DNA from: Synechococcus sp. A15-24 | GTDB taxonomy: Bacteria > Cyanobacteriota > Cyanobacteriia > PCC-6307 > Cyanobiaceae | Assembly: GCF_014280195.1 (NCBI RefSeq) | Contig: NZ_CP047960.1 | Coordinates: 1,680,001 to 1,712,000, forward strand | Direction: 5' to 3' | DNA length: 32,000 nucleotides | In this document: piece after piece, positions 1-18,785 of the stretch | How positions within the stretch are numbered: position 1 is the stretch's first letter | Layout of the letters: each line of letters opens with the position of its first letter | Program-made: the position numbers and the translations under genes | Notes under the pieces: generated by a model | What the model was told of the DNA's origin: nothing | The model's input: only the letters and a program-made list of their open reading frames with translations | The model's database searches: none

Positions 1-190
1 GTTCCGGTCTTCTGGCGACTGGCCTTGAGAGCGGCATAGGCCTCTGGGGGCAGCAGCGCCTTCACCGTGCGAGTCACGGTGTTTGGGCTGCAACCGAAGA
101 CCTCCGCCAGGGCAACAGTGGACTCTCCAGCCTTGTAACGACCCACCAGGTCCTGCTTCTCGCTTTCGCTAAGACGACGTGGGGCCATCA
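1..190 (-). CDS. HTH-domain DNA-binding protein, N-terminal 63 codons only (gene runs off the left edge)
   Basis: Reverse-strand ATG at 190-188. It reads MAPRRLSESEKQDLVGRYKAGESTVALAEVFGCSPNTVTRTVKALLPPEAYAALKASRQKTG with no stop down to position 1. The GESTVALAEVFGCSPNTVTR stretch looks like a resolvase/transposase-type helix-turn-helix. It is absent from the ORF track because it is truncated. Confidence 0.6.
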
Positions 191-250
191 ATGTCGTTTA
201 GGAGCTCCAAACTCTAGGAGCCTTAGGTGGCTGGCAGAATGCGATCGGCA

Positions 251-324
251 GCTCCCTTAGCTCAGCTGGATAGAGCAACTGCCTTCTAAGCAGTCGGTCG
301 ATGGTTCGAATCCATCAGGGGGCG
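251..324 (+). tRNA. tRNA-Arg, anticodon TCT
   Basis: The cloverleaf is readable by eye. Acceptor stem: GCTCCCT (251-257) / AGGGGGC (317-323). D arm: GCTC-AGCTGGATA-GAGC. Anticodon arm: ACTGC-CTTCTAA-GCAGT, with TCT at 285-287. Variable loop: CGGTC. T arm: GATGG-TTCGAAT-CCATC. Discriminator: G324. No CCA is encoded. Confidence 0.93.
280..322 (+). repeat. attL-type direct repeat (3' part of tRNA-Arg), identical to 5722-5764
   Basis: TGCCTTCTAAGCAGTCGGTCGATGGTTCGAATCCATCAGGGGG is present at both places. I compared the two copies base by base and found 43/43 identical. Confidence 0.9.
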
Positions 325-338
325 TTAGTTATACCAAA

Positions 339-367
339 GGTTCTCAGCGTTTCTGAGAGCCATTTTT
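339..367 (+). terminator. intrinsic terminator directly after tRNA-Arg, lying inside the inserted element
   Basis: The stem is GGTTCTCAG (339-347) / CTGAGAGCC (353-361), 9 bp with one G-U pair. The loop is CGTTT, followed by ATTTTTC (362-368). Confidence 0.55.
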
Positions 368-383
368 CATTTCATCTTGCAGC

Positions 384-420
384 CTTGTGCGCAGAATTGT
401 GCGCAGATTCATTGCAACCG
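384..420 (+). repeat. 37-bp arm repeat, copy A (two GTGCGCAGA sites 12 bp apart plus ATTGCAAC)
   Basis: CTTGTGCGCAGAATTGTGCGCAGATTCATTGCAACCG matches 5571-5607 at 32 of 37 positions in direct orientation. GTGCGCAGA occurs at 387-395 and 399-407. An inverted single copy (GTGCGCA on the minus strand) lies at 450-456. Confidence 0.7.
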
Positions 421-546
421 CCTCTGCCGCAACAGATCACAGCAATTTTTGCGCACAATCGCCCAAAACCCGCCGCCTGAAATGCATCTCGTCATTTATT
501 TCGTAATTCAGTGCCTATAAATAATTGCCTTTATAACTAGAACCGG

Positions 547-573
547 CAAAAAAGAAGCCGCCGAAGCGGCCCC
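547..573 (-). terminator. orphan intrinsic terminator on the minus strand (UUCG tetraloop hairpin plus U-tract)
   Basis: The minus strand reads GCCGC-TTCG-GCGGC followed by TTCTTTTTTG. On the plus strand this is GCCGC 557-561, CGAA 562-565, GCGGC 566-570 and an A-tract at 548-553. No minus-strand ORF lies upstream of it. Confidence 0.4.
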
Positions 574-668
574 TATCTGTTGCGCTGAGCCGCCAGTCCA
601 CCGTAAAACTGAGTGTTCACAGAATACTCAAAACAGCTAAGCTGTATATATCCCAGATATGCATTTTA

Positions 669-845
669 GTGCCCAAACGTCAGCTACCTATTCAGGCTGA
701 CCTGATCATCAATCGTCTTCGTCTTGAAGCCAGTATTGAACGTCAGCGTGCAGTCTTTGAAATTGATGATGACTTGCCACATGTGCCGTCCTACGACCCA
801 TTAGCAAGTCCCCAAAGCCGCCGCATAGCAACTCATGTCAGCTGA
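669..845 (+). CDS. possible small ORF (58 aa, GTG start) overlapping the next gene; hypothetical
   Basis: Frame 3 is open from 537 to TGA at 843-845 and contains no ATG. GTG at 669 gives VPKRQLPIQADLIINRLRLEASIERQRAVFEIDDDLPHVPSYDPLASPQSRRIATHVS. It overlaps the ATG at 835 by 11 nt. It is below the ORF-track cutoff and the start is uncertain. Confidence 0.3.
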   Translation: MPKRQLPIQADLIINRLRLEASIERQRAVFEIDDDLPHVPSYDPLASPQSRRIATHVS

Positions 846-1245
846 ATTTCAATCAATCGACGACCAGATCAAGGCGTCGTACCAATCTGCATCGCAAGTC
901 GAAACTCAGGCTCGTCAGCTTGAAGCCAGAATCGCCAAGATCGATGGCACAAAACATCTCATACCAACACGTCGTTATGGTCAACCGGTCGACCTAGCAA
1001 AAATCAGGTCAAATCTGACACTTACATCTCTTATTGCACAAGATTCCGCAGAGCTAGCTCACTTTTGCGGCATAGACCCTGGCATTCGTCACCGTATGGA
1101 CGAGGAGAAGGAGGCCAGAGCCCTTGCAGCGCAGTCGTTAGCGATGCGCACAGAGCGCCTCCGCGACAGTAACGAGAGCGCTGCCAAGGTCCGCGAGCAG
1201 CAGCTCATCAGTGGCATCAACCCAATGACTGGGAGGTTCTTCTGA
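835..1245 (+). CDS. hypothetical protein, helical/coiled-coil-looking (island cargo)
   Basis: 136-aa ORF with an ATG start. Its stop (1243-1245) shares a base with the next ATG (TGATG). I recognise no domain by eye. Confidence 0.6.
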   Translation: MSAEFQSIDDQIKASYQSASQVETQARQLEARIAKIDGTKHLIPTRRYGQPVDLAKIRSNLTLTSLIAQDSAELAHFCGIDPGIRHRMDEEKEARALAAQSLAMRTERLRDSNESAAKVREQQLISGINPMTGRFF

Positions 1246-1592
1246 TGCTTGCTCGACCGCACCCTGTTCTGGGTTGGCTGCATTGCCAGCCAGAGGACAG
1301 CAGAAGACTCCTCGACCGTCAGCTAACCCATCGCGATCATGCGCTGGAGGCTGATCCAAGCTTCAGCGGTATGCCAGCGAGCTTCGTTGAGGAGACCTGG
1401 GTCAACTGGTTGCCCAAGGCTGTCGCCAAGCCCTTCTACAGAGACCAGCTCACCGCCCATGTTGCAGAGCTGGAACGCCAAATCACCAACCTCAGCCGGG
1501 AGATTGAACTGCAGTCCGGCGGCCTGCTCGATCAAAGAGATGCAGCTGTGGATCTCAGGCAACGTCTCAAGCACTTGCTTGACAACTCATAA
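1245..1592 (+). CDS. hypothetical protein (island cargo), C-terminal coiled-coil-like segment
   Basis: 115-aa ORF coupled to the upstream gene by a TGATG overlap. The C-terminus LTAHVAELERQITNLSREIELQSGGLLDQRDAAVDLRQRLKHLL looks heptad-like. Confidence 0.55.
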   Translation: MLARPHPVLGWLHCQPEDSRRLLDRQLTHRDHALEADPSFSGMPASFVEETWVNWLPKAVAKPFYRDQLTAHVAELERQITNLSREIELQSGGLLDQRDAAVDLRQRLKHLLDNS

Positions 1593-1615
1593 CTCTAGAC
1601 AGTCTGAAAATTCCA

Positions 1616-1834
1616 GTGCAACCACTACTGATGCCAAACCTTTTTGATCACGTCCCAGACGTTCCTCTGTTGCATAGCGTTAACCGATGGCCCAAGAGTT
1701 GCGCCAGAGAGGAATGGTTGCGAATAACTAAAGCCGCTGTGGCTAGCGTCATTGCAAATCTGGCAGATAACCTAGACGACGTGGAGCTATCACTCGTCGA
1801 GCAGCTCTTTAAAGAAGCAGATTTGTTGCCATGA
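1616..1834 (+). CDS. hypothetical small protein (island cargo)
   Basis: 72-aa ORF starting at GTG 1616, with an alternative ATG at 1631. It is on the same strand as the two upstream ORFs and 23 nt after them. Its stop is 8 nt from the convergent 1843-3015 gene. Confidence 0.45.
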   Translation: MQPLLMPNLFDHVPDVPLLHSVNRWPKSCAREEWLRITKAAVASVIANLADNLDDVELSLVEQLFKEADLLP

Positions 1835-1842
1835 GACCAGAG

Positions 1843-3015
1843 TTAATCGAGTTCCATTTCATTTATTGATTTCACCACTGAACGGGCTCTTTTTACTTGT
1901 GCAGGGTCACAGTATTTTTCTGCAAATTGCCACTTGCCCAATGAAATCAATTCACTTTCAAGTTCTGAAATAATGGACTCAAACTCAGCTGGCGGCAATT
2001 GGGTAAGCTCTGTTTTCCCTGTCCAATCCCTAAGATCCTCTGGGATATCCTGAAGTCCCCACCCAAATTTAAATGCTTGTTCAATAAGGACGCAGTCAGA
2101 TCTATCAGGGAAAAAGCGAGGTGCAATTAATTCGGGCCCGTATTTACCTTGTGAAGACCTTCGCTTCTTGTTGCTACTTATTCCGTACTTTGAGCATTTC
2201 GGGTTAGGGGACTCGTGCAGATATAGCTCACAGTTGCCTCCATAAGCAAGAGTGCCAGACAACGCTCTCCAAACGGTATCATTAGTTTTTCCATTATGTG
2301 CAGAATATATTGGTCCATATTTTCTGCCTAAGGCAGGACCTACTTTTTTTCCATTCGCTATACATTGGGCAATATGACAGCATTTAATACCACTTTTGTG
2401 GCCCTTCTTGGGTCCCGTCAGCCGCCTCTGCAAAACATCTTTTGGCTTTGCTGGGTGCACTTCGTTGTGACGTGTGCAGTAAAAATTCAGTACGGATCTG
2501 CAGGTAATGTATTCACCTGAAACCCATACAAGAGTGGGATTGTAGTTTGCTAGACGTTCCTGAAAACTCTCAGCATTTTTTCTATCTTTTTCTCTCCCTC
2601 TTTCTCTATTAGCCTCTAACATACAACATCTTAAGCCTTGGCCCTTTTTGCAGTGGTTGGGAGCGGCTTCAAAATGTTTTTGATGTTTTAAGCAAAGGTG
2701 ATAGATGGGCGTATCCTTATCAATATATTCTTCGAGTCGAATTACTTTTCCAAACTTGGCAAGATCTTCATCGTAAGTTGCTGCCGCTTTATCCCTCTTC
2801 CTTTGATTAGCTTCTTGCGCACGATGCCTTGCGCAGCACTCAAGCCCCCAGCCTCTTGCTACGATGCATGGCTTAGACGTATAAACTTCATCGTGTCTTA
2901 GACACAAGTAATAAGTGTCTCTCTCGTTACCAAGAAATTCGCCTACAAGTTCTACTCTCCCGTGAGAGACTATTTCAGCTAGATGTTGCTCCTTTGTTTT
3001 GCGTCGATTAGGCAT
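1843..3015 (-). CDS. triple Zn-binding-repeat protein with a C-terminal GIY-YIG/T5orf172-like putative nuclease domain
   Basis: 390-aa ORF. It has three tandem repeats of the pattern Y-x-C-x2-H ... C-C: YYLCLRHDEVYTSKPCIVARGWGLECC, IYHLCLKHQKHFEAAPNHCKKGQGLRCC and NFYCTRHNEVHPAKPKD...KSGIKCC. The C-terminus reads CELYLHESPNPKCSKYGISSNKKRR ... LIEQAFKFGW ... WTGKTELTQL, which resembles GIY-YIG-clan (T5orf172-like) spacing. This is the lowest-GC stretch of the island. Confidence 0.7.
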   Translation of the reverse strand: MPNRRKTKEQHLAEIVSHGRVELVGEFLGNERDTYYLCLRHDEVYTSKPCIVARGWGLECCARHRAQEANQRKRDKAAATYDEDLAKFGKVIRLEEYIDKDTPIYHLCLKHQKHFEAAPNHCKKGQGLRCCMLEANRERGREKDRKNAESFQERLANYNPTLVWVSGEYITCRSVLNFYCTRHNEVHPAKPKDVLQRRLTGPKKGHKSGIKCCHIAQCIANGKKVGPALGRKYGPIYSAHNGKTNDTVWRALSGTLAYGGNCELYLHESPNPKCSKYGISSNKKRRSSQGKYGPELIAPRFFPDRSDCVLIEQAFKFGWGLQDIPEDLRDWTGKTELTQLPPAEFESIISELESELISLGKWQFAEKYCDPAQVKRARSVVKSINEMELD

Positions 3016-3142
3016 TTTTTCCGTGTTACTTTACATCTCTGAGGTGCTCTTCTGGTGGTGTTTTCTTGGGCATTTAAAAGGATTTGCGCGTTTGATGCGA
3101 GTCGCTGCGCAACAGATTTATCCATTGTAGAGGAGCTGAGAA

Positions 3143-3529
3143 ATGGCCAGAACCAGCAGAGCTGAGCGCAACCGACGTCGTGAATCAGCGTTAACGCTGG
3201 TCAGCGAGGGAAAAGGTTTTAGTGATGTAGTGACCGCACAGATGGCGCAATGGGGGTGCAGCAGAAGTTCTGCGCAACGGGACTGTCGTTGGGCACACAA
3301 CCAGCTGCAGTTGGGCATGGATTCGCACGATGCTCAACATCTGATGGTGCACATGGCGACATCACTTCAACGCATTGCATTGAAAGCCGAGCAGGACAAG
3401 CAGTACGGCGCAGCGGTCGGTGCACAGAAGATGTTGTACGAGCTGCTGTTACGTCGACGGCTTGATGACGAAGCTGAGAAGGCAAAGAAACCAGGTTGGG
3501 GTTATCGCCATTGCAACACCAGGCGCTGA
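3143..3529 (+). CDS. hypothetical small basic protein with an N-terminal HTH-like segment (island regulator or DNA-binding protein?)
   Basis: 128-aa ORF. A basic N-terminus (MARTSRAERNRRRE) is followed by SALTLVSEGKGFSDVVTAQMAQWGCSRSSAQRDCRWA, which looks HTH-like. The rest looks helical. The functional call is inference only. Confidence 0.5.
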   Translation: MARTSRAERNRRRESALTLVSEGKGFSDVVTAQMAQWGCSRSSAQRDCRWAHNQLQLGMDSHDAQHLMVHMATSLQRIALKAEQDKQYGAAVGAQKMLYELLLRRRLDDEAEKAKKPGWGYRHCNTRR

Positions 3530-3533
3530 ATAC

Positions 3534-3554
3534 TCTGCGCACCAATCTGCGCAC
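3534..3554 (-). promoter_or_regulatory. third pair of phased GTGCGCAGA sites (inverted relative to the end copies)
   Basis: The plus strand has TCTGCGCAC at 3534-3542 and 3546-3554, which is GTGCGCAGA twice on the minus strand with 12-bp spacing. ATTGCAAC lies nearby at 3510-3517. A related single site, CTGCGCA, is at 3105-3111. Confidence 0.5.
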
Positions 3555-3608
3555 TGCACTCGAAATGACAGAAGATTATTGAGTCACAGAGGGCGATCTA
3601 AACAGGTC

Positions 3609-3635
3609 GACCTACTGCTGTTACGGCAGTAGGTC
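3609..3635. terminator. 10-bp hairpin between convergent island genes (possible bidirectional terminator)
   Basis: GACCTACTGC (3609-3618), a 7-nt loop, then GCAGTAGGTC (3626-3635). The flanking U-tracts are weak, with only TTT on the minus-strand side. Confidence 0.35.
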
Positions 3636-3697
3636 ACTTAGAATGGCCTCATCCTTGGCTGGATCTGGCCCGTGACCTATTCGGTTGTGGGTCATTT

Positions 3698-3934
3698 TTA
3701 TGCTTGCTCCTTACGGCTAAGCATTCCAAGCTGGTGAAATTTTTCACGGCAACTTTCAACGTCCCAACGAATTGGGGATGTTTTGTGTGCACCGAGAAAA
3801 TAATCTTCGCCAGCTATCAGAGGACCACCTTTGGAATCCATCTGACGTTTTAAGTGGCCCTGCGACATTTTCATCGCATAGGCAGCATCAGCTGTCTTTA
3901 AGACAAGCCGATGCCTCTCCATTGTTAAATCCAT
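3698..3934 (-). CDS. excisionase/AlpA-like HTH DNA-binding protein
   Basis: 78-aa ORF downstream of int on the same strand. LKTADAAYAMKMSQGHLKRQMDSKGGPLIAGEDYFLGAHKTSPIRWDVESCREKF follows the typical Xis/HTH_17 layout: HTH, then G-x-x-P, then W-D. An alternative start is the ATG at 3922. Confidence 0.6.
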   Translation of the reverse strand: MDLTMERHRLVLKTADAAYAMKMSQGHLKRQMDSKGGPLIAGEDYFLGAHKTSPIRWDVESCREKFHQLGMLSRKEQA

Positions 3935-4132
3935 TAAAATTAAGCGTGGTTAAAGAAAGAAGTTGCATGGGACTAGAGCAGAGCTTCAGTTTCTGACCAC
4001 ACCGGCATAACCAGTGCTCACATAGTGAATCGAATGTAGCCACTCGATTCAGCCGGTCATAGCGAGCCGCCGAAGGCAGCATTCGCGTCAGACGCATAAC
4101 GCCTGTGACCACATTCTGCAGCACGTTGCAAG

Positions 4133-4165
4133 CTTTGGCAAGCCAAAGACACCATAGATGGTGTC
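4133..4165. repeat. two abutting palindromes between the int stop and the xis-like gene
   Basis: The first is CTTTGGC-aa-GCCAAAG (4133-4148). The second is GACACCAT-ag-ATGGTGTC (4148-4165). They lie 43 nt downstream of the int stop, in the minus-strand sense. Confidence 0.45.
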
Positions 4166-4207
4166 AGCCAACAATGAAAGTAATTTGGTATGCCATAACT
4201 TAAAGGC

Positions 4208-5611
4208 TCAAGTCTGGCCTTTTGCCACTGCAACACCGGCATTAGTTTTCTTCAGCGCAGCATCCATAGACTCGCGATCAAGCCAGTGACCGTAATGCCT
4301 GAGATGGGTCAGAAGCGAGTGCCGAAGCCACTTTGCAGCGACTCGTTCGTGCATGTGATTGTCAGATTCAATATGCGCTCGATACGCCCAGCCATGCCGG
4401 AATGAGTTTGCTGTGATGTTGGCGTTGCCAGCTTTGATGACGTCTCGCCAGTAGGGGAAGCGATTCAGCTGCTGCCCGACCTCACCACCAACACCTTGAA
4501 AACTATTCTTCTTCTCTATTGTAGAAATTTGGTTGCGTACGGCCTTCGGCAGCTTCACTAAGCCAGATTCGAATGCTGTCAGCATCTGCTCAGCTTCGCC
4601 TACAGGCCGACCCGCAATGGCCAGAGGCATCACAGGGTCAGGTGCCTTGATCGGTTTGTGCATAGTGCGATGGTTTCGTTTGATATGACCAACAGTCGCT
4701 TGACCGTCTTGCACCTGAAGCACCGCAATTTCACCTGGTCGTAATCCGAGATAAGCGATCAGCCCAACGCACAATTTCAGATCGTGGCGGCCAGCACTCT
4801 CCAGTTCATCCAAAAGATCACTGATCTGCTTGCTCTTGAGTGGTGGTGTGGTTTTGTCCGCTTCAACCTGTGCGCTGGCCGTACCGGTCAGCTGACGCAT
4901 CAGCTCAGTGCCTTGTGAACCTGATGGTGGTGCGAACCGTGGCGGAACCATCTGACGCTCGACAGACCATTTCAGAAATGCCGAGCAATCTTTCAAAGCT
5001 CGGATTCGCCCTTGGCCGCCAGCACTGACGGAAACGTTGCCGTCCGTATCGTAAAAATGCTGCTCCGCATAAGCCTGCAGAGCCGCTTCACCATTGCGTG
5101 GCTTTGGTGCTGACTCTAGGGTTTGCAGCAGTTTGTTCAAGCGAGCTGAGGTCCATTTCAGAGTGTTGGGGCGATTGCCAGCCTTTGTCGCCATGAAGCT
5201 GGCAAGAGCTGATTCCCACGCTTTTTGGCCAGTGACACCGGCAACGCTTGCAGAAGGCTTTTTCGGATCATCCAAAGAATCTCCGTACAGCTTCACCGCC
5301 TTGGAGAGAGAGAGCTGCTGAACCTCCATCAGCTCACGCACGGCCTTGACCCAGTTCAAGATTGGAGTCGAACTGGCCTTGGTCCAGGGCAACGGCAGAT
5401 ACGCAGAAGACCTTGAACCGTCTTCGAAACGGCGCGTGAGCTGCACAGTTCCGCGATGGTCACGAATGGACCAACCGAAGCCTTGCTCGGCCTTGAGCAG
5501 CTTTCTGCAAGTTACGAACCATTGCTCTCTCGTAGAAGCCATGACCAACTGCCTTGAAGCATCACAGGAGCCTGTGCGCACAATTGTGCGCAGAATCGTT
5601 GCAACGGTCAA
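4208..5611 (-). CDS. int: tyrosine recombinase / phage-type integrase
   Basis: 467-aa maximal ORF. The C-terminal catalytic elements are readable: GLRPGE (Arg I), NSFRHGWAYRAH (H-x-x-R), WLRHS and LRHYGHW (Tyr). The first 23 codons overlap the 37-bp arm repeat (5571-5607). The ATG at 5542 (MASTREQWF..., 444 aa) is therefore the more likely true start. Confidence 0.88.
   Translation of the reverse strand: MTVATILRTIVRTGSCDASRQLVMASTREQWFVTCRKLLKAEQGFGWSIRDHRGTVQLTRRFEDGSRSSAYLPLPWTKASSTPILNWVKAVRELMEVQQLSLSKAVKLYGDSLDDPKKPSASVAGVTGQKAWESALASFMATKAGNRPNTLKWTSARLNKLLQTLESAPKPRNGEAALQAYAEQHFYDTDGNVSVSAGGQGRIRALKDCSAFLKWSVERQMVPPRFAPPSGSQGTELMRQLTGTASAQVEADKTTPPLKSKQISDLLDELESAGRHDLKLCVGLIAYLGLRPGEIAVLQVQDGQATVGHIKRNHRTMHKPIKAPDPVMPLAIAGRPVGEAEQMLTAFESGLVKLPKAVRNQISTIEKKNSFQGVGGEVGQQLNRFPYWRDVIKAGNANITANSFRHGWAYRAHIESDNHMHERVAAKWLRHSLLTHLRHYGHWLDRESMDAALKKTNAGVAVAKGQT
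5571..5607 (+). repeat. 37-bp arm repeat, copy B
   Basis: CCTGTGCGCACAATTGTGCGCAGAATCGTTGCAACGG is 32/37 identical to 384-420. GTGCGCACA is at 5574-5582 and GTGCGCAGA at 5586-5594, 12 bp apart. One further GTGCGCA lies at 5630-5636. Confidence 0.7.
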
Positions 5612-5721
5612 CCAGGAGTTACAACTTCTGTGCGCATAGCCTTGCCTAACACCTAGTCATACCAACGGTTATCACTAGTGTTCATGGGATTTTGACCTTG
5701 ATACAGCGCCCTTTGACCAAG

Positions 5722-5764
5722 TGCCTTCTAAGCAGTCGGTCGATGGTTCGAATCCATCAGGGGG
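5722..5764 (+). repeat. attR-type partial tRNA-Arg copy (3' 43 nt only, not a gene)
   Basis: Identical to 280-322. The upstream sequence cannot form the acceptor 5' strand or the D arm. Two TTTGACC heptamers (5691-5697 and 5712-5718, 21 bp apart) sit immediately to its left. Confidence 0.9.
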
Positions 5765-5880
5765 AGTTCAAAGAGAGGCCATTCTTTGAGGTCGAACACA
5801 TGGCCATGGGAGGTCAGAAAGGGCAAGAAGGCTGTTGCTCGAGACCTGTTGGGGACGGTGGCGATGACCACCATGCAAAC

Positions 5881-6060
5881 TCAAGCTTGTTGACTGCTCG
5901 CAAATTCGAGGTCAGCCCAGGTCAGTCCAACCCATTCCAGTCCCTCCTGGATGTCTTGCTGAAGTGCAGCAGCCTCTTCAACAGCATCCATCTCGATGAG
6001 GTCCAGATATTTCTGGTACTCAGCCATCCAGGCGATGAGATTCGGAGTGCTGTTCGTCAT
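5881..6060 (-). CDS. small acidic helical protein (59 aa), hypothetical
   Basis: My own translation gives MTNSTPNLIAWMAEYQKYLDLIEMDAVEEAAALQQDIQEGLEWVGLTWADLEFASSQQA, then stop. It has a clean ATG and protein-like composition. It is below the ORF-track cutoff. Its ATG overlaps the stop of ORF 6057-6260 as ATGA. Confidence 0.5.
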   Translation of the reverse strand: MTNSTPNLIAWMAEYQKYLDLIEMDAVEEAAALQQDIQEGLEWVGLTWADLEFASSQQA

Positions 6061-6262
6061 CCTTCGATTCTTAAGCCTGGACCGGCCGAGAGGCTGGCAT
6101 CTTGGATACAGCTTCCGTTGAAGCCCAAGCTTCCTCGCGGTTGCAGGGCAGAGGGACGGCGACCCCCGCGAAGGTGCAGAAGACTTGCCTCAACGTTCAG
6201 AACATTCCAACCAAGTACTTTGTCTTGGTCGCAAGTAGCTCTTGGCAAAACGGGTCGCACTA

Positions 6263-6442
6263 ATGCTCACAACAGCAGCGATGTGGTTCGTCCAATCAGT
6301 CCATGCCTCTGAATGCGTCACCGTGACGAGCAACAACGATCCAAGTCGTGATGGCATGGTCTGCAAGCGCGTCGCCAGAAGTAGCACCAACGGGATTGGC
6401 TTCTGGAGGTGCTGTCCTCAAACAGACGCGACAAACGACTAA
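6263..6442 (+). CDS. possible small secreted Cys-containing peptide
   Basis: The sequence is MLTTAAMWFVQSVHA/SECVTVTSNNDPSRDGMVCKRVARSSTNGIGFWRCCPQTDATND. It has a short signal-peptide-like N-terminus and 4 Cys in the remainder. The track ORF begins at TTG 6242. Confidence 0.35.
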   Translation: MLTTAAMWFVQSVHASECVTVTSNNDPSRDGMVCKRVARSSTNGIGFWRCCPQTDATND

Positions 6443-6597
6443 CCAATCAGAAGGACCAACGGCAACCCCCACCCCTGTCAGGCACTCAACCCAAGCACCC
6501 CTGACGGCGTTAGCATTGACCAGTCAGAATTTCCACTTCGATCATCATCCGGAGCTGCCACATATCAGCGCCTTAACAACTGAGCTTCTTTAGGCTA

Positions 6598-7406: not shown

Positions 7407-7876
7407 TCAGCATCAACACAGTTTTCAAGGTTGCAACGCCATCAAGACTCCGCCCTTGAGGTCCTGGGTTCAAACTCCATTCACTTCACCTACTTGCCCA
7501 TGGTCAGATTGGTGGGCCTGAACGACAGCGAATCTCGCTTTGCAACAAAGTCTCTCGGTGTCAAGGTTGCTTTGTTCTGATTCTTCGAACTGCTGATCTG
7601 CAATCTCGATCAGGAACGTGCCTTTTGAAATTTGGTGGGGAAAGGTTTCGTTCCCTGCCTGCTGAGCCTTGCTGTGATGGACCTTCTCATCATTCCGCGG
7701 GTCAGGCGCAGACTGCGCAGGTGACCAGGACACGTCCCCATGTCGATCGAAACCCTGGAGCAAATCGTGGCTGTGCTGGTCACGGCGGGGCTCGTCGCCG
7801 GAAATTTCCTGATGTTCACCCCCTGGCGCGATGGCCACGATCCACGTGAGCGCTGGCCCGCCCACAACACCAACGA

Positions 7877-8173
7877 TCAGCTCTCGGCAAAGTGGGATTC
7901 AGCCAACCGCTGCAACAGCTTCAGAGATTCCAGAACCTCCAAGCGTTTCTGCGCTTGAGCCAGCATCGGCTTGCCATGGGGCACACAGGAGTCGATCAGG
8001 GAGGCGGCCTCTGAGGCTTCCGCTTTGACCCAGGTAAGGCAGCGGTCGATCTGCTGAGCCACATTGCCCTCCTTGAGGGCACCGGCATAGTTCGGCCCGG
8101 CAATGGCGAGGAGCAACAACCGCAACGCCTGATCGGCGCTCTCCTGATCGGGGGGCAATGCGTCAGTCATCAA
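7877..8173 (-). CDS. hypothetical helical protein
   Basis: 98-aa ORF starting at TTG 8173 or ATG 8170. It overlaps the stop of the upstream gene (ATGACTGA). The composition is protein-like. Confidence 0.5.
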   Translation of the reverse strand: MMTDALPPDQESADQALRLLLLAIAGPNYAGALKEGNVAQQIDRCLTWVKAEASEAASLIDSCVPHGKPMLAQAQKRLEVLESLKLLQRLAESHFAES

Positions 8174-8393
8174 ACACCGTGATGCCGCTGGCCTGTTCCT
8201 CGAGATGGGCAGCTCGATCCAGCACCGCCTTCAGGACCTCTTCAGCAGATGGATCCAGATGGAGTTGGTGCAAGGTGAACGCCACATCCCTGGTGGAGGT
8301 CAGCACTGCTGGGGACACCTGCTCAAGCGGAATGGCCGGCTCTCGGCGGCGCCGTTTCTTGTTGTCGGCCTGCGTTCCCGCGTCTTTTGCCAT
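8163..8393 (-). CDS. hypothetical small protein with a basic N-terminus
   Basis: 76-aa ORF with an ATG start. It begins MAKDAGTQADNKKRRRREP, followed by an acidic helical region. It is translationally coupled to 7877-8173. Confidence 0.5.
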   Translation of the reverse strand: MAKDAGTQADNKKRRRREPAIPLEQVSPAVLTSTRDVAFTLHQLHLDPSAEEVLKAVLDRAAHLEEQASGITVFDD

Positions 8394-8487
8394 CTCAACG
8401 AAGTGCCTCCGTTCATTCTGACTCCCATCGCCATGTGATCTAGAGCACAGTCAGTGGCACAGTGACAATCAACACGACATTGAAATC

Positions 8488-8643
8488 ATGCTGCTGACCA
8501 GTCCACCGGCCGAAACCCGTGAGTGCAGCAGTTGCGGCAAAACGCTGTCGCTCAATTTCTTCGCGCTCGACACCCGTGAGTGCCGTCGCTGTGAAGCGCA
8601 GCGCAGCAGCCAGCTTCAGGCCTCACTTCAGGAGTCGGCCTAG
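8488..8643 (+). CDS. possible 51-aa zinc-ribbon-like peptide (CxxC...CxxC)
   Basis: My own translation gives MLLTSPPAETRECSSCGKTLSLNFFALDTRECRRCEAQRSSQLQASLQESA. The 12-nt ACCCGTGAGTGC is repeated in frame (8515-8526 and 8572-8583). Its TAG (8641-8643) interlocks with the convergent stop of the protease gene (CTAG). Confidence 0.4.
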   Translation: MLLTSPPAETRECSSCGKTLSLNFFALDTRECRRCEAQRSSQLQASLQESA

Positions 8644-10007
8644 AGCCCCTCAAAGCCGCTGAACAGGGCATGCCGTTCAAGATCCAGGTCACTCACACCT
8701 GGCAGTTGCGCCACCACACGACCATCAATCAACACCTGGCTGCCATCGTCAACTGAATAAAAGGTCACCGCACTGACATCAACATCGAAGACCAGTCGAT
8801 CCTTGCGGGGGTTGAAATCGGTCACCTCCACCAGTGCACCCTGTTGGGCTGAAATCCAGAACTGATCCTTCCCTTTGCCACCGGTGACCCGGTTGCCATC
8901 GCCACCGCCGGCAGCCAGAACATCAGCGCCTTTCTTTCCCTTCAGCCGGTTGTCAGCATCGTTGCCAATCAGGAGATCATCTCCCTTGCCACCGATGGCG
9001 ATCTCAATCACACAAAACCCCGCAGGCTGGCCGAGGTTTCTGCCGTCCCAGTCGTGGGCAATGGTGAAACCACCGAAGACGTCCTCCGCGCGGCTGACAT
9101 AGCCACCGGCATTGACGTCATCACCAAGGGTCGCGTTGCGCAGATCGATGGTGACAGGAGCTGTGGCACCAGCTGCCGTGATGCGGTCCACCCCGCCGGT
9201 GTCCCAGATCGCACGCCACCCCGTTCCCTGGCGATTCTCCAGCGGCAAGGTGTAAGTGTCATCTCCGGAGGCAGCGTCAGGATTGATTCCGTATATCCAT
9301 TGCAATGCAGCAATATCCAGCGCCCCCGGCGTCTGCAGAAAGCCGTAAGCGTCGATCGATTCCGGAACCATTCCATTACGAGCTCCCTTATCGACGTAGC
9401 TGAGCTGTGTGAAGGGGTGGGCGTTCTGGTCAAAATCGCCTTTGTCCCGAAATTCATTCGACCTGTGCGTCAAACCAGGGAAACGGGGTTGATCAAGCAG
9501 ACCTTTGTCATGGGGATGCTTAAGGCCAATTGCATGACTGAGCTCATGCAAAAACGTGATGCCGTAGAAGCTGCCGGAAGCAATCGAATTCTTGAAACTG
9601 CCATCAGCGTTTTGATAGGTCGACCAGTTGATGGCCACCAACCCTTCATCAGAGTCGCTGCCGGGGGTGTAGGCGAAGCCATAGCTTCCTTCTGACTGAC
9701 GTTTATCGAGGTTGTAATACCAGATTTCCACCCCATCGTCGTTGTCATCTCCGCGGTCGTCGAACTGAAGAGAACAAACCGCAGAGATTTCCTCCATGGC
9801 ACCCTCCATGAGCTGGCGCTCTTGATCACTCCAACCCCAGGAGGGATAGCCCCCGAACTCACCACCCGGCCGATCAGATGTATCGCTGATGAAGGTGGTG
9901 CCGACAGCAGGGTCTGTCGCTGTGGTGCCCCAGCGGAAGCCGTCCGTCAGACCATCAATCCAGGCATTGCCTGAACGAGGTACTTCGATTGCAGTTTTGT
10001 AGGCCAA
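8640..10007 (-). CDS. serralysin-like (M10-type) zinc metalloprotease with C-terminal RTX calcium-binding repeats
   Basis: The HExxHxxGxxH motif is present in FLHELSHAIGLKHPHD. GGxGxD-type nonapeptides are present (GGKGDDLLIGNDADNRLKGKKGADVLAAGGGDGNRVTGGKGKD). There is no N-terminal signal peptide, which fits type I secretion. Confidence 0.88.
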   Translation of the reverse strand: MAYKTAIEVPRSGNAWIDGLTDGFRWGTTATDPAVGTTFISDTSDRPGGEFGGYPSWGWSDQERQLMEGAMEEISAVCSLQFDDRGDDNDDGVEIWYYNLDKRQSEGSYGFAYTPGSDSDEGLVAINWSTYQNADGSFKNSIASGSFYGITFLHELSHAIGLKHPHDKGLLDQPRFPGLTHRSNEFRDKGDFDQNAHPFTQLSYVDKGARNGMVPESIDAYGFLQTPGALDIAALQWIYGINPDAASGDDTYTLPLENRQGTGWRAIWDTGGVDRITAAGATAPVTIDLRNATLGDDVNAGGYVSRAEDVFGGFTIAHDWDGRNLGQPAGFCVIEIAIGGKGDDLLIGNDADNRLKGKKGADVLAAGGGDGNRVTGGKGKDQFWISAQQGALVEVTDFNPRKDRLVFDVDVSAVTFYSVDDGSQVLIDGRVVAQLPGVSDLDLERHALFSGFEGL

Positions 10008-12134: not shown

Positions 12135-12977
12135 TCAACCAGGCTTGCGCAACCGCATCAGTCCCCAGCTGAGGCGTCCCTGCTGGCCACCATCCACCCA
12201 GTGGCCAAGGCCCACATCCATCCGATCGAGATAACCGGAACTGATGCTGGTTTCCAGCTGTGCACGACGTAACCGGGTGTCCTGCCGGACCCGGTCGTAG
12301 TGACGCACGAGCATCTCAGTGCGTTCATCCCAAACCTCCATCGTCAGGCCAACCGCATCTCCCCAAGCCCTGTATCGACTCGGTGAGGCAAGGTCGGGGA
12401 GATGAATACGGTCGAGGATCGGCTGCAGCAATCCCATCTCCACACCATCGGCCGCCATCGGATCGGTGAACACGAAACATCCCCCAGGCTTCAGCAGGCG
12501 GGACACCTCGGCCAACACCTTGGCTCGATCGCCGGCATGCAGGATGGCATCCTGACTCCACACCAGGTCTGCACTGGAATCGGCCACGGGCACCTGCTCA
12601 AACGAAGCGTCGTGCACCGTGATCTGCTGCTCAAGACCGGCATTAACATTTAGTCGACGATGGCGGTCGTTCTCAACCGCCGAAATGTTGATGGCATGAA
12701 CCGGTCGCTCACTCCAGCGAGCAAGGCGCCGGGATGCTCCGCCGTAGCCCGCCCCAAGATCCACCACGCATCCGCCTTGAGGCAGTGGGTCGGCCAGCTC
12801 AAGCAGGGCATGCACCGTGCGGTCACTGGCCGTCGCGATGGCCTCATCCGGCGTTGCATACAAACCGATATGAATATCCTCCCCACCCCAAACCTGTTCG
12901 TAAAACTGATCAGCGTCCTGACTGTCGTAGTAGGTCGCCGCAACGGAATCCGCCGCAGAGCCATTCGTTGTGCCCAT
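12135..12977 (-). CDS. gbmt2: dimethylglycine (sarcosine/dimethylglycine) N-methyltransferase, last step of glycine-betaine synthesis
   Basis: 280 aa. The N-terminal motif YYDSQDADQFYEQVWGGEDIHIGLY is characteristic of SDMT/DMT enzymes. The SAM-binding VVDLGAGYGG is present. It lies immediately downstream of the GSMT gene. Confidence 0.85.
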   Translation of the reverse strand: MGTTNGSAADSVAATYYDSQDADQFYEQVWGGEDIHIGLYATPDEAIATASDRTVHALLELADPLPQGGCVVDLGAGYGGASRRLARWSERPVHAINISAVENDRHRRLNVNAGLEQQITVHDASFEQVPVADSSADLVWSQDAILHAGDRAKVLAEVSRLLKPGGCFVFTDPMAADGVEMGLLQPILDRIHLPDLASPSRYRAWGDAVGLTMEVWDERTEMLVRHYDRVRQDTRLRRAQLETSISSGYLDRMDVGLGHWVDGGQQGRLSWGLMRLRKPG

Positions 12978-12982
12978 CAGCC

Positions 12983-13831
12983 TCAGTGCATGGTGGTGTC
13001 GACGTCGAAGCGATATTCCTTCTCCGCGACGTGAACATAAAAATCGGGATTTTCAAAGTCCCGCTGATAATCACCAAAGCTGGTGATCTGCTGGAAGCCA
13101 ACCTCAGACATCAGACGACGGACGTAGCCGTAGCGCAACGGGAACATGTTGAGGTGATAGACCCCACCATCACTGAAGGAATAACGGAAGCGCGCCAAAC
13201 CTTCATCAACATGCTCAGGACCAACCTCCACATCTTTTCCGCAATAGACATTGCCTTTGCCCTGTCGAACGGCCGATCCGCCCTCCAGCAGCCGGTCGTA
13301 ATTGCGGTGATCAAGAATCAAGATGCCATTGTGCTTCAACACGGCGTAATACTCAGCCAGAGCTTTACGCCGATCCCGCTCCTTGAACAGGTGGGTGAAT
13401 GAATTACCAAGACAGATCACAGCATCAAACTCGCCGTGAATGTCACGATTGAGAAAGCGCCAATCCGCCTGCGATGTCCTCAGCAGCTGATCACGGTTGC
13501 GAGCATTGCGAAACGCCCGGGCCAGCATGTTGGGGCTGCCATCCGCACTGACCACATCAAATCCTTCCTCCAGCAATCGGATGGAGTGAAAACCAGTTCC
13601 TGTGGCTACATCCAGAACCGAACGGGCACCGTGCTCCTTGAGCAGACGGATAAAGAAATCACCCTCCGCTTCAGCCCGTGCATTCCAGTCGATCAATCGA
13701 TCCCAGCGATCGGTGAAGTCTTCGATGTACTCCTGCTGGTAGTGATCCGTCTCGCGAACCGATTCAGGAGATTGTCCAAAACGCTGCTGATCGTCCTGCG
13801 TTTGCAATGGATGGTTCTGCGTTGACGTCAT
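12983..13831 (-). CDS. gbmt1: glycine/sarcosine N-methyltransferase
   Basis: 282 aa. The sequence ...DHYQQEYIEDFTDRWDRLIDWNARAEAEGDFFIRLLKEHGARSVLDVATGTGFHSIRLLEEGFDVVSADGSPNML is typical of GSMT, with the SAM motif VLDVATGTG. It is the first gene of a two-gene operon. Confidence 0.85.
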   Translation of the reverse strand: MTSTQNHPLQTQDDQQRFGQSPESVRETDHYQQEYIEDFTDRWDRLIDWNARAEAEGDFFIRLLKEHGARSVLDVATGTGFHSIRLLEEGFDVVSADGSPNMLARAFRNARNRDQLLRTSQADWRFLNRDIHGEFDAVICLGNSFTHLFKERDRRKALAEYYAVLKHNGILILDHRNYDRLLEGGSAVRQGKGNVYCGKDVEVGPEHVDEGLARFRYSFSDGGVYHLNMFPLRYGYVRRLMSEVGFQQITSFGDYQRDFENPDFYVHVAEKEYRFDVDTTMH

Positions 13832-14111: not shown

Positions 14112-15116
14112 ATGAATGAGCCGATCCGCCTCCGGGAGGTCTGGAAAAGTTTCGGCGGCAGGCCAGGAGCGTCGCCAGCCGAACTACTTCAGTCCTCTGA
14201 AGCCAGGGTTGCTGTACAGGACGTCTCCCTGGAGATCAGGGCCGGGGAGATGTTTGTGGTGATGGGGCTGTCCGGATCCGGCAAGTCCACCCTGTTGCGC
14301 ATGATCAATGGCTTGATCAGCCCAAGCCTTGGGGTTGTTGAGATTGAAGGGCGACCGCTGCAGCAGTTCAGCCGAGGCGAACTGCGTGCCCTCAGGCGGC
14401 GCAGCATGGCGATGGTGTTCCAATCCTTCGCCCTTTTTCCGCAGCGCAGCGCGCTGGAGAATGCAGCCTTTGGGCTTGAAATGGCCGGCGTCCCCCGCCG
14501 CCAACGCCTGGCCAAAGCTCAGCAGGCGCTGGAGCGGGTTGGCCTCGGTGGGGATCTGCACCGCACGCCGGATCAGTTGTCCGGCGGCATGCGTCAGCGG
14601 GTCGGTCTGGCGAGGGCTCTGGCGTTGGATCCCCCCGTTCTGCTAATGGATGAAGCCTTCTCGGCGCTGGACCCGCTGATCCGTGCCGATATGCAGGATC
14701 TGCTGCTGGATCTGCAACGGGAACACCGGCGCACCATTGTCTTCATTTCCCATGATCTGGATGAAGCGGTGCGGATCGGCGATCGCATCGCGTTGATGCA
14801 GGACGGACGTCTGCTGCAGTGCGATACAGCGGAAAAGCTGTTCCGCACCCCCGCCGAGCCGGCGGTGGCTGAATTTTTCCGTGGTGTTGATCCCGCTGGC
14901 GTCCTCACCCTTGGAGCCATTGCCGAGCCATCGCCACTGACTGACGGATGGGATCCCAAGGATCCCGACCTCACCGTGCTCTCCTCAGCCATGCTCCTCA
15001 AGGAGGCCATACCGATCGTCACGGCCGCAAACAGGCCTGTGGCGGTTGTCGGCAACGATCACCATCTGATCGGCTCGGTGTCACCCAACACGATCCTGCG
15101 GGCGCTTAGTCGATGA
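14112..15116 (+). CDS. proV: glycine betaine/proline ABC transporter, ATP-binding subunit
   Basis: Walker A is GLSGSGKST, the signature is LSGGMRQRVGLARAL and Walker B is VLLMDEAFSALD. It has a short C-terminal regulatory tail. Its stop overlaps the proW start (ATGA at 15113-15116). Confidence 0.9.
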   Translation: MNEPIRLREVWKSFGGRPGASPAELLQSSEARVAVQDVSLEIRAGEMFVVMGLSGSGKSTLLRMINGLISPSLGVVEIEGRPLQQFSRGELRALRRRSMAMVFQSFALFPQRSALENAAFGLEMAGVPRRQRLAKAQQALERVGLGGDLHRTPDQLSGGMRQRVGLARALALDPPVLLMDEAFSALDPLIRADMQDLLLDLQREHRRTIVFISHDLDEAVRIGDRIALMQDGRLLQCDTAEKLFRTPAEPAVAEFFRGVDPAGVLTLGAIAEPSPLTDGWDPKDPDLTVLSSAMLLKEAIPIVTAANRPVAVVGNDHHLIGSVSPNTILRALSR

Positions 15117-17618: not shown

Positions 17619-18698
17619 TCAACCGATGGCAGGTGCCTGCAGAGCCACAGGAGTGGACTCAGCAGCAGCCAGGTCGAGGGGGAAGTTGTGAGCGTTACGC
17701 TCGTGCATCACTTCCATGCCGAGGCCGGCACGGTTCAACACGTCGGCCCAGGTGTTCAGGACGCGGCCCTGACCATCAAGGATGGACTGGTTGAAGTTGA
17801 AGCCGTTCAGGTTGAAGGCCATGGTTGACACGCCCAGGGCGGTGAACCAGATGCCGACAACAGGCCAGGCAGCCAGGAAGAAGTGGAGGCTACGGCTGTT
17901 GTTGAAGGAGGCGTATTGGAAGATCAGGCGACCGAAGTAACCGTGGGCAGCCACGATGTTGTAGGTCTCTTCCTCTTGGCCGAACTTGTAGCCGTAGTTC
18001 TGGGACTCGGTCTCGGTGGTTTCACGCACCAGGGAGGAGGTCACCAGGGAGCCATGCATGGCGGAGAACAGGGAGCCACCGAACACACCTGCAACACCCA
18101 GCATGTGGAAGGGGTGCATCAGGATGTTGTGCTCAGCCTGGAACACCAGCATGTAGTTGAACGTGCCGGAGATGCCCAGGGGCATGGCGTCAGAGAAGGA
18201 GCCCTGACCGAAGGGGTAGACCAGGAAAACTGCAGAGGCAGCAGCGACAGGTGCGCTGTAGGCGACGCAGATCCAGGGGCGCATGCCCAGGCGGTAGGAG
18301 AGTTCCCACTCACGACCCATGTAGGCGTAGATGCCGATCAGGAAGTGGAAGACGACGAGCTGGAAAGGACCGCCGTTGTACAGCCACTCATCAAGAGAAG
18401 CAGCTTCCCAAATGGGATAGAAGTGCAGGCCAATGGCGTTGCTGGAAGGAACAACAGCACCGGAGATGATGTTGTTGCCGTAAATAAGGGAGCCAGCGAC
18501 GGGCTCGCGGATGCCATCGATGTCAACCGGAGGAGCGGCGACGAAAGCGATGACGAAGCAGATGGTGGCAGCCAGCAGGGTGGGGATCATCAGCACACCG
18601 AACCAACCGACATACAGACGGTTGTTGGTGGAGGTGACCCACTCGCAGAAAGCCTGCCAGCTGGAAGCGCCGGAGCGCTGCTGGAGGGTGGTGGTCAT
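17619..18698 (-). CDS. psbA: photosystem II reaction-centre protein D1 (E130, D1:2-type isoform)
   Basis: Full-length 359-aa D1 that I recognise unambiguously. Counting residues puts Glu at position 130 (YMGREWELS). A C-terminal extension follows ...NFPLDLA. Confidence 0.98.
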
Positions 18699-18714
18699 GA
18701 GAACGGAAAGAAGT

Positions 18715-18757
18715 GTTCCCGAAGGAACGGTTTAAGGAAGGGCAGGTGTGCCCTGCC
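18715..18757 (-). promoter_or_regulatory. two hairpins in the psbA 5' leader
   Basis: GTTCC-CGAA-GGAAC (18715-18728) gives a UUCG loop on the mRNA strand, 17 nt upstream of the ATG. GGCAGG-N5-CCTGCC lies at 18741-18757. The function is not established. Confidence 0.35.
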
Positions 18758-18785
18758 TCACACCAATGTAACGGAAGGTTGAGAG

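Follow-up and report, generated by a model that had tools for sequence, protein, structure and literature searches.

A small integrative element, probably of the tycheposon type, in the tRNA-Arg(tct) gene of Synechococcus sp. A15-24

Described tRNA-seeded elements and the A15-24 locus

In the available text of the preprint that describes tycheposons (Hackl et al., 10.1101/2020.12.28.424599), these elements are defined by an inward-facing integrase of a lineage of their own, in most cases a tyrosine recombinase, and by shared hallmark genes, among them an excisionase for mobility and a primase, helicase or polymerase for replication, the replication module being optional. They integrate at island-associated tRNA genes with a full and a partial tRNA as flanks, and cargo serving adaptation to the environment or interference with phages, as well as excision through circular intermediates, are further features. 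Seven targets are listed there, namely the transfer RNA (tRNA) genes for Pro, Ser, Ala, Thr, Arg(tct) and Met and the transfer-messenger RNA (tmRNA) gene, and about half of the 937 elements catalogued in Prochlorococcus carry only an integrase gene (int) and an excisionase gene (xis) and are called “cryptic”. For marine Synechococcus, Grebert et al. (2022, PMC8995045) reported tycheposon-like insertions that lie at tRNA-Phe(GAA) and precede, on the upstream side, the phycobilisome rod region. Here we analysed a stretch of 32,000 nucleotides of Synechococcus sp. A15-24 (contig NZ_CP047960.1, positions 1,680,001 to 1,712,000), which is called the window in the following, and it turned out that its positions 323-5764 are very probably an integrated small site-specific integrative element of marine picocyanobacteria, of the tycheposon type. 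The element is real, cleanly bounded and recently inserted, and it belongs to a known kind in a minimal form. That this copy is still able to excise is moderately probable.

The locus resembles the tycheposons of the available preprint text in several respects. It has a site-specific tyrosine recombinase with a small excisionase, lies in the 3' part of an island-seeding tRNA gene with a partial tRNA at the far end and int pointing inward, and takes the tRNA-proximal end of a variable island. Its relatives have a primase/helicase module of 2-4 kb, and homologues of its integrase stand beside the same tRNA genes in Prochlorococcus single-cell genomes. The differences are that the host is Synechococcus, that int adjoins the partial tRNA at the distal end and not the full tRNA, that the element is 5.4 kb long as against the 10-20 kb quoted, and that its conserved operon of small open reading frames (ORFs) and its pairs of TGTGCGCAGAAT boxes are not mentioned in that text. 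It also has neither a replication module nor recognisable adaptive cargo, which puts it in the “cryptic” half by the authors' criteria. With regard to the defining features, the island tRNA is Arg(tct), flanked by the full gene and a 43-nt copy 5,442 bp away, and an empty site is known; int starts 180 nt from the distal repeat (attR) and reads inward; among the hallmark genes, a homologue of xis is present and replication genes are absent. Since the replication module is optional, the window copy is placed among the “cryptic” int-plus-xis elements and not excluded.

The tRNA-Phe(GAA) insertions (PMC8995045) likewise belong to a marine Synechococcus host, have a tyrosine recombinase at the distal end beside a tRNA remnant and stand at the head of a niche-related variable region. 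Unlike the window element, they use another target tRNA and locus, are larger and contain other recombinases or restriction-modification genes, and neither a circular form nor an empty-site pair is shown there for the integrase clade of the window. The A15-24 locus is a cleanly delimited example of tRNA-seeded island building in marine Synechococcus and extends the tycheposon picture from Prochlorococcus to the tRNA-Arg site of Synechococcus; current views are not overturned by it.

Attachment sites, empty site and circular relatives

The target gene, the attachment cores and the limits of the element are located as follows.

251-324, + strand: tRNA-Arg(tct), intact (ARAGORN; Rfam tRNA, 67.6 bits)
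280-322, + strand: attL core, 43 nt from the anticodon stem to the acceptor 3' strand (exact repeat)
323-5764, no strand: integrated element, 5,442 bp, from the first base past the attL core through the attR core (absent in the contig L079)
339-367, + strand: hairpin and T-run, tRNA terminator carried by the element (terminator scan)
5722-5764, + strand: attR core, partial tRNA without 5' half (repeat search, tRNA calls)

The tRNA-Arg(tct) gene at 251-324 is the single tRNA found in the window by ARAGORN and Rfam. As already noticed in a preliminary description made from the sequence alone, this gene is intact and its 3' 43-mer recurs exactly (43 of 43) at 5722-5764, where no 5' half exists; the two copies are 5,442 bp apart from start to start. 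Wider similarity around the cores extends over 54 nt at 94% (273-326 against 5715-5768). A 27-nt sub-pattern of the core, with up to three mismatches, occurs at only two sites in the 32 kb, where shuffled sequences are expected to give none, so the core is not a dispersed repeat, a possibility raised at the outset, and a chance match was rejected as well.

After the core, the window and three related loci (L002, L004 and L077; related loci and contigs are cited by such numbers) have “CGT..” in common, followed by a hairpin of 13 bp with a T-run. The terminator stem is conserved in the four elements, with no double compensatory change among them. This shared sequence indicates that the element, not the chromosome, supplies the last tRNA bases and the terminator at 339-367, as had been suggested and as the terminator scan agrees. 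The tRNA-Arg(tct) gene accordingly consists of a chromosomal 5' part and of last nucleotides that, like the DNA downstream, come from the element.

The preliminary description had proposed to look in related genomes for a site in which the tRNA joins the right flank directly, and such a site exists. By searching with the partial helix-turn-helix (HTH) gene upstream of the tRNA and fetching the contigs that encode homologues, we found L079, a metagenome contig of 4.3 kb (ENA ERZ1742973). It matches window 1-326 at 97.6%, then directly 5715-6445 at 91.8% and 7480-8511 at 93%; it has an intact tRNA-Arg and lacks the 5,442 bp that separate the two cores in the window. The presence of an empty site in a near relative implies that the insertion is recent or polymorphic.

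Integrase homologues at 63-87% identity were found on short metagenome contigs only. One of them, L004 (7,686 nt, integrase 65% identical), has an exact 141-nt terminal overlap, which makes it a circular assembly of 7,545 bp. It contains one att core with three substitutions, two of which are a compensatory pair in the T stem, and has no tRNA 5' half. The core is flanked by sequence like window 323-405 on one side and like 5770-4225 on the other, which is the order of right end, core and left end predicted for attP, and L002 repeats this junction. For L001 (integrase 86% identical), the element-like match of the left arm stops about 15-17 nt past the core, and the 1.7 kb beyond the core are without convincing ORFs; with the left arm diverging so early, the attP argument rests on L004 and L002 and not on L001. 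A circular junction, which had been proposed as a check, was therefore seen in the relatives L004 and L002 and less cleanly in L001, and none was observed for the window copy. In this way all four attachment states are known, attL and attR from the window, attB from the near relative and attP from the circular relatives.

The repeat, the empty site and the attP of relatives agree with the idea, put forward earlier, of a tyrosine-recombinase element in the 3' end of tRNA-Arg(tct) that regenerates the gene. We propose the following course of events. The tyrosine recombinase would recombine attP, which would hold the last ~43-47 nt of tRNA-Arg(UCU), with the chromosomal tRNA gene. Since the element carries its own tRNA 3' end and hairpin terminator, the gene would stay intact at attL, and the tRNA fragment would remain at attR beside the inward-facing int. 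A 78-aa protein encoded downstream of int would act as the likely excisionase, and excision would give a 5.4-kb circle. In relatives, primase-like and DUF3987 helicase-like genes would let the circle replicate; the window copy, which lacks them, can probably still excise and integrate and would not be able to replicate on its own.

Several points weigh against this reading. At the base after the attR core (5765) the window reads A, as against C in attL, attB and attP. The 35 nt to the right of the attR core (5765-5799) are unrelated to their counterpart in L079, although both sides of this stretch are otherwise 92-98% identical to that contig; the stretch could be the scar of an earlier integration or excision. 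The Pfam Phage_integrase match of the integrase (E 1e-3, 19.4 bits) falls under the 27.1-bit gathering cut-off, and membership in the tycheposon lineage rests on taxonomic range, tRNA targets and gene order. For the exact window copy neither an excised circle nor a repaired site was observed, and its present-day activity is something that we infer. Finally, a copy without a replication module may be a dead-end derivative.

The DNA next to the element varies as well. In L078, a more distant relative, the tRNA is followed by homologues of window 8163 onward, which means that the downstream 2.4 kb are also variable. L077, a 44-kb contig of a related Synechococcus, has another and larger insert in this tRNA, which starts with an element-type left end, has a poly-G run and may be a tandem or composite element; homologues of window 1183-1651 lie about 8.6 kb from the tRNA-Arg of this contig. 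Comparison of L077, L078 and L079 indicates that tRNA-Arg heads a variable island and that the element sits at this island's proximal end. The variable region downstream of the element includes a 455-aa ORF at 8640-10007 (- strand), whose translation has the zinc-metalloprotease motif HELSHAIGLKHPH and Gly/Asp-rich repeats near the C-terminus; the DNA of L078 is 66% identical there.

Recombination genes, repeated boxes and the replication module

The recombination genes and the gene that converges on them are listed below.

4208-5542, - strand: tyrosine recombinase (integrase), 444 aa, inward-facing at the distal end (phrog_1, catalytic residues)
3698-3934, - strand: putative excisionase (recombination directionality factor), 78 aa (position after int)
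3597-3694, no strand: two hairpins between the convergent orf128 and xis (sequence; terminator scan match at 3666-3694)
3143-3529, + strand: orf128, 128 aa, basic, with an N-terminal HTH and a helical C-terminus, conserved in the family (homologues)

The integrase ORF spans 4208-5611 (- strand), and its true start is probably M24 at 5542, which gives the 444 aa found in the A15-24 annotation and in all homologues. The protein is 100% identical to the annotated integrase of Synechococcus sp. A15-24 and matches phrog_1 of the PHROG database (1e-12). That the window is part of a marine Synechococcus chromosome is also shown by its psbA gene with a PhotoRC-I leader. In an alignment of 18 homologues, R268, K288, R382, H408 and Y417 are invariant, and the His of the usual H-x-x-R is replaced by Asn or Tyr in this integrase family. 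The uninterrupted tyrosine recombinase that had been noted beside the distal repeat is thus a full ORF in which the catalytic R, K, R, H and Y are kept.

We scanned 185,579 species-representative genomes for this integrase family and obtained 70 loci, none of which exceeds 44% identity to the window integrase. Nearly all are from Synechococcus, Cyanobium, their relatives and Prochlorococcus single-cell genomes, and the few metagenome-assembled genomes labelled as other genera look like mis-binned ones. For the family integrases, the distance to tRNA-Ala(ggc), Arg(tct), Pro(tgg) or Val(tac) is 150-300 nt, and at one locus there is also a tmRNA gene ~1.8 kb from a partial int. Four of these sites (Ala, Arg, Pro and tmRNA) appear in the list of seven tycheposon targets. 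Among the genomes with integrase homologues is the Prochlorococcus single amplified genome (SAG) AG-355-N18, which the available preprint text (10.1101/2020.12.28.424599) names as an element-bearing genome. The restriction of the family to picocyanobacteria, its place beside known target tRNAs, which include Arg(tct), and the Prochlorococcus loci speak for the tycheposon-like nature first suggested from the sequence. The full tRNA is followed by int in L011, L023, L041 and L068; in the clade of the window the core is inverted relative to int, so that int ends up at the distal end, as Grebert et al. also noted for Synechococcus. L011 (9729-18692) and L068 (9772-18874) are elements of 8.9-9 kb at tRNA-Arg(tct) of Cyanobium-like genomes with int beside the full tRNA, and L011 has the backbone genes of the window, namely xis, orf58, orf136, orf115 and orf128.

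The 78-aa protein has homologues in ~35 family loci, including Prochlorococcus, and these lie directly downstream of int in the closest relatives and most others, with a few copies further off. The protein itself gave no family match; HTH_17 was reached by 6 of 25 homologues, and the match of the family profile to RdfS is weak (E 0.23). The excisionase assignment is therefore likely mainly on position: of the earlier proposal of an Xis/AlpA-like gene, the conserved place beside int stands firmly and the similarity in sequence is weak. The two hairpins at 3597-3694 are likely terminators, judging from the sequence.

The main difference from close relatives lies next to xis. In L001, L002, L004 and L006, xis is followed by a protein of 307-359 aa that resembles N-terminal regions of phage primases/helicases and then, as the second gene, by a DUF3987 protein of 480-494 aa. 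In the window, the gap from xis to the convergent orf128 is ~170 nt, which leaves the window copy without a replication module, and the ORF list, Pfam and PHROG gave no primase, helicase or DUF3987 gene in the element (323-5764). The window copy thus lacks the primase/DUF3987 module kept by four close relatives, and the earlier remark that no capsid or replication genes occur in the element is upheld, none being matched among the window ORFs (Pfam, PHROG). L011 has 3.6 kb between xis and orf128, which would be room enough for such a module. In L080 (integrase 86% identical), homology with the window ends at 3536 and other small ORFs follow xis; the divergence at exactly this position marks a cargo junction.

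A set of repeated boxes lies at this junction and in both arms of the element.

386-409, + strand: left-arm tandem pair of TGTGCGCAGA(A/T)T boxes, 12-bp spacing (repeat and motif searches)
450-457, - strand: third left-arm box
3534-3554, - strand: internal tandem pair of GTGCGCAGA boxes, at the cargo/replication-module junction
5573-5636, + strand: right-arm boxes, a tandem pair at 5573-5596 and a single box at 5629-5636

In the window, TGTGCGCA occurs 9 times where 2.2 are expected, and 8 of the 9 are inside the element. The pair at 5573-5596 is just upstream of int and overlaps a promoter-like site. It is conserved in L001, L002, L006, L080 and L081, with 23 of 23 nt kept in L002/L003 and a stretch of 33 nt that is 88-91% identical in L001, L080 and L081; the DNA around it is less similar, about 70-77% identical. 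Box pairs are found at equivalent places in five elements, and in L002, L004 and L006 boxes stand on both sides of the DUF3987 gene in direct orientation. The TGTGCGCAGAAT pairs are probably integrase arm sites and/or operators, and iterons are possible too. The replication module could have been lost when box pairs recombined with each other. Synechococcus and Cyanobium elements thus share a backbone of int, xis, the small-ORF operon and conserved box pairs, within which a single junction is the place of exchange for the replication module and other cargo, and the window copy is a natural minimal version, convenient as a substrate for studying excision, the role of the boxes and the need for own replication genes.

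The missing module also raises the question of whether the element is an immobile remnant, that is, a decayed replicative element that lost its replication genes and persists as part of the tRNA-proximal island. The absence of the primase/DUF3987 module kept in L001, L002, L004 and L006 would fit such decay, as would the substitution beside the attR core, the insertion of a selfish endonuclease gene (see below) and the fact that the integrase clade occurs in no other species-representative genome (best identity 44%). However, neither int (444 aa) nor xis is interrupted, no catalytic residue is lost, the 43-nt cores are identical, the box pairs and the terminator are conserved, and the empty site in a near relative speaks for a recent or polymorphic insertion; besides, replication genes are optional in tycheposons, with about half of the Prochlorococcus elements in the available preprint text having only int and xis. 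We regard decay to an immobile remnant as very improbable and keep to a tycheposon-type element in minimal form.

Small genes, an inserted endonuclease-like gene and phage satellites

The remaining genes of the element are as follows.

669-1834, + strand: four coupled small ORFs, operon (ORF list, homologues in relatives)
669-845, + strand: orf58
835-1245, + strand: orf136
1245-1592, + strand: orf115
1616-1834, + strand: orf72
1843-3015, - strand: homing-endonuclease-like protein, 390 aa, with three CapR-type Cys/His zinc repeats and a C-terminal T5orf172/GIY-YIG-like domain

All genes listed in the preliminary description (int, the 78-aa, 128-aa and 390-aa genes and the coupled small ORFs) are present in the ORF list. 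Homologues of the operon were found in L004, L008/L040, L010, L011, L038, L062 and L077, and the four small ORFs and orf128 are conserved in Synechococcus and Cyanobium elements at tRNA-Arg and tRNA-Ala sites. None of these five has a family in Pfam, PHROG, NCBIfam or PADLOC. The operon is a conserved backbone of the family. The only annotatable cargo gene is that of the homing-endonuclease-like protein, the small ORFs being without family. A known defence system was rejected as an identity of the element (no PADLOC match). A prophage was rejected too, and the earlier judgement that the element is far too small for one holds, with 5.4 kb and eight ORFs, none of them structural.

The 390-aa protein has three C-x2-H...CC repeats and a C-terminal “LYLYE...KYGIS...R...E” region, and matches phrog_681 (endonuclease, 3e-17). 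It has only nine homologues among 5.8 billion clusters, four of which match the CapR domain. Its AlphaFold (AF2) model, with a predicted local distance difference test score (pLDDT) of 83, matched T5orf172, GIY-YIG nuclease, CapR-domain and treble-clef zinc finger phage proteins in BFVD (E 1e-13 to 1e-8). No match was obtained by tblastn in 50,697 phage records, by sequence search in PDB or by Foldseek against PDB, so that the BFVD fold search and the CapR Pfam matches alone are informative for this protein. They agree with the Zn-repeat/GIY-YIG-like protein described at first.

This gene lies between orf72 and orf128 on the opposite strand, homologues of orf72 and orf128 are adjacent in L062, and with 43.1% G+C it is the lowest-G+C part of the window. 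We read it as a free-standing gene of the homing-endonuclease type that would have invaded the element, with a low-G+C cassette at ~1835-3142. The element interior has 49.8% G+C, compared with 60.4% in the left flank and 62.5% at 14-32 kb, and in this respect the interior is AT-rich as had been stated; however, G+C is low in the DNA directly to the right as well (53.7%), and most of the AT richness of the interior comes from the one inserted homing-endonuclease-like gene. A homologue of the 390-aa protein, 42% identical to it, is encoded by L104 at 8001-9212 (Synechococcus SAG, GCA_003210375.1), where its gene is grouped with a few unannotated ones downstream of lexA, indicating that genes of this type also occur outside tRNA-Arg elements.

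Homing endonucleases of the phages ICP1 and T5 share this architecture, and CapR of the Vibrio cholerae satellite PLE (phage-inducible chromosomal island-like element), which represses capsid genes of the helper, derives from such proteins (Netter et al. 2021, PMC8096241). The 390-aa protein is like CapR and the ICP1 T5orf172 proteins in its Cys-rich CapR-type DNA-binding modules, and like the ICP1 T5orf172 homing endonucleases in its C-terminal T5orf172/GIY-YIG-like domain. Unlike the known members, it has three tandem zinc modules and only 12-18% identity in the fold matches, and unlike in those systems its gene here looks like an inserted selfish gene.

orf128 is a candidate regulator, and HTH_23 was matched by 9 of its 33 homologues. 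Its profile (33 homologues) is collinear with the small terminase of cyanophage Pam5 (E 0.02; query 10-100 against chain 6-98; hhalign probability 74%). PHROG scans of the 33 homologues match no terminase family, and the single-sequence AlphaFold model (pLDDT 55) is too poor for a structure search.

A circular element that shares the tRNA-Arg core was found in IMG/VR. This 9-kb contig, L099 (IMGVR_UViG_3300032215_001034; 123-nt terminal overlap, 64.7% G+C), has a tRNA-Arg(tct) 3' fragment without 5' half as its core (5868-5907) and an integrase whose catalytic half is related to that of the window (hhalign probability 98.9%). Among its other genes are one for a primase/helicase-like protein of 860 aa, one for a major head protein (PHROG 617, 1e-78) and one with a weak match to small terminases. 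By its gene content the contig looks like a satellite, resembling phage-inducible chromosomal islands (PICIs), at the same attachment site. Comparison of orf128 with the weak small-terminase-like protein of L099 was negative.

These results bear on the satellite-like alternative of the preliminary description, in which the window element would itself be PICI-like: excised on cyanophage infection and packaged in helper capsids, with orf128 as a small-terminase-like packaging factor and the CapR/T5orf172 protein binding or cutting helper-phage DNA, as CapR does in the Vibrio PLE. Small size, the int-xis module and tRNA-type attachment are shared with PICIs and PICI-like tycheposons, and L099, with its major head protein, shows that true PICI-like elements use the same att core. 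The alignment of orf128 with the Pam5 small terminase, and the CapR-type domains and phage homing-endonuclease fold of the 390-aa protein, given that CapR represses helper capsid genes (PMC8096241), also fit. However, no capsid, terminase or other packaging family is found in any window ORF (Pfam, PHROG, NCBIfam), and three protein scans of IMG/VR gave no relative of int, of orf136 or of the DUF3987 protein of a relative. The replication module that PICIs need for amplification is absent from 323-5764, the endonuclease-like gene looks like a secondary insertion and not backbone, and the structural model of orf128 is poor (pLDDT 55). Helper-packaging or capsid-redirecting genes are represented by the weak orf128 similarity, which the PHROG scans of its homologues contradict. 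Unlike PICIs, then, the element lacks genes for replication, capsid and terminase, and the IMG/VR scans did not find it among viral contigs; with no packaging genes and no IMG/VR relatives, the satellite idea comes down to the weak small-terminase similarity of orf128, and we hold it to be very unlikely.

A related possibility is a minimal, helper-dependent hitch-hiker. Here orf128 would be a divergent small-terminase-like protein of DNA recognition, the TGTGCGCAGAAT pairs its packaging or replication sites and the CapR/T5orf172 protein directed against cyanophage, and the 5.4-kb circle would depend on related primase/DUF3987 elements for its replication in trans and on a cyanophage for packaging or mobilisation. 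We give this a slim chance; if true, it would be the smallest satellite-type element known in picocyanobacteria. The tycheposon-type element remains the preferred reading.

Other viral contigs carry the same tRNA fragment. L096 (core 4397-4436), L100 and L102 are cyanophage-like IMG/VR contigs of 47% G+C, with endolysin, ribonucleotide reductase and dCTP deaminase, and have an exact 40-nt Synechococcus tRNA-Arg 3' fragment without 5' half, like an attP; a possible affiliation of these contigs is the potentially lysogenic cyanophage lineage of bioRxiv 10.1101/325100. L097 and L101 are parts of one 66.9-kb IMG/VR contig, on which a distant integrase (24% identity) adjoins a full tRNA-Arg(tct) and another, partial core lies elsewhere; this suggests a larger integrated element at tRNA-Arg in another host.

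Further downstream in the window, two adjacent methyltransferase-like ORFs (280 and 282 aa) and then an ATP-binding cassette (ABC) transporter ATPase-like ORF lie in the segments 12135-13831 (- strand) and 14112-15116 (+ strand), in a region of intermediate G+C; the translation of the ATPase-like ORF has the Walker A motif GLSGSGKST. At 17619-18758 (- strand) there is a psbA-like ORF of 359 aa, with a PhotoRC-I RNA motif (66.9 bits) directly upstream.

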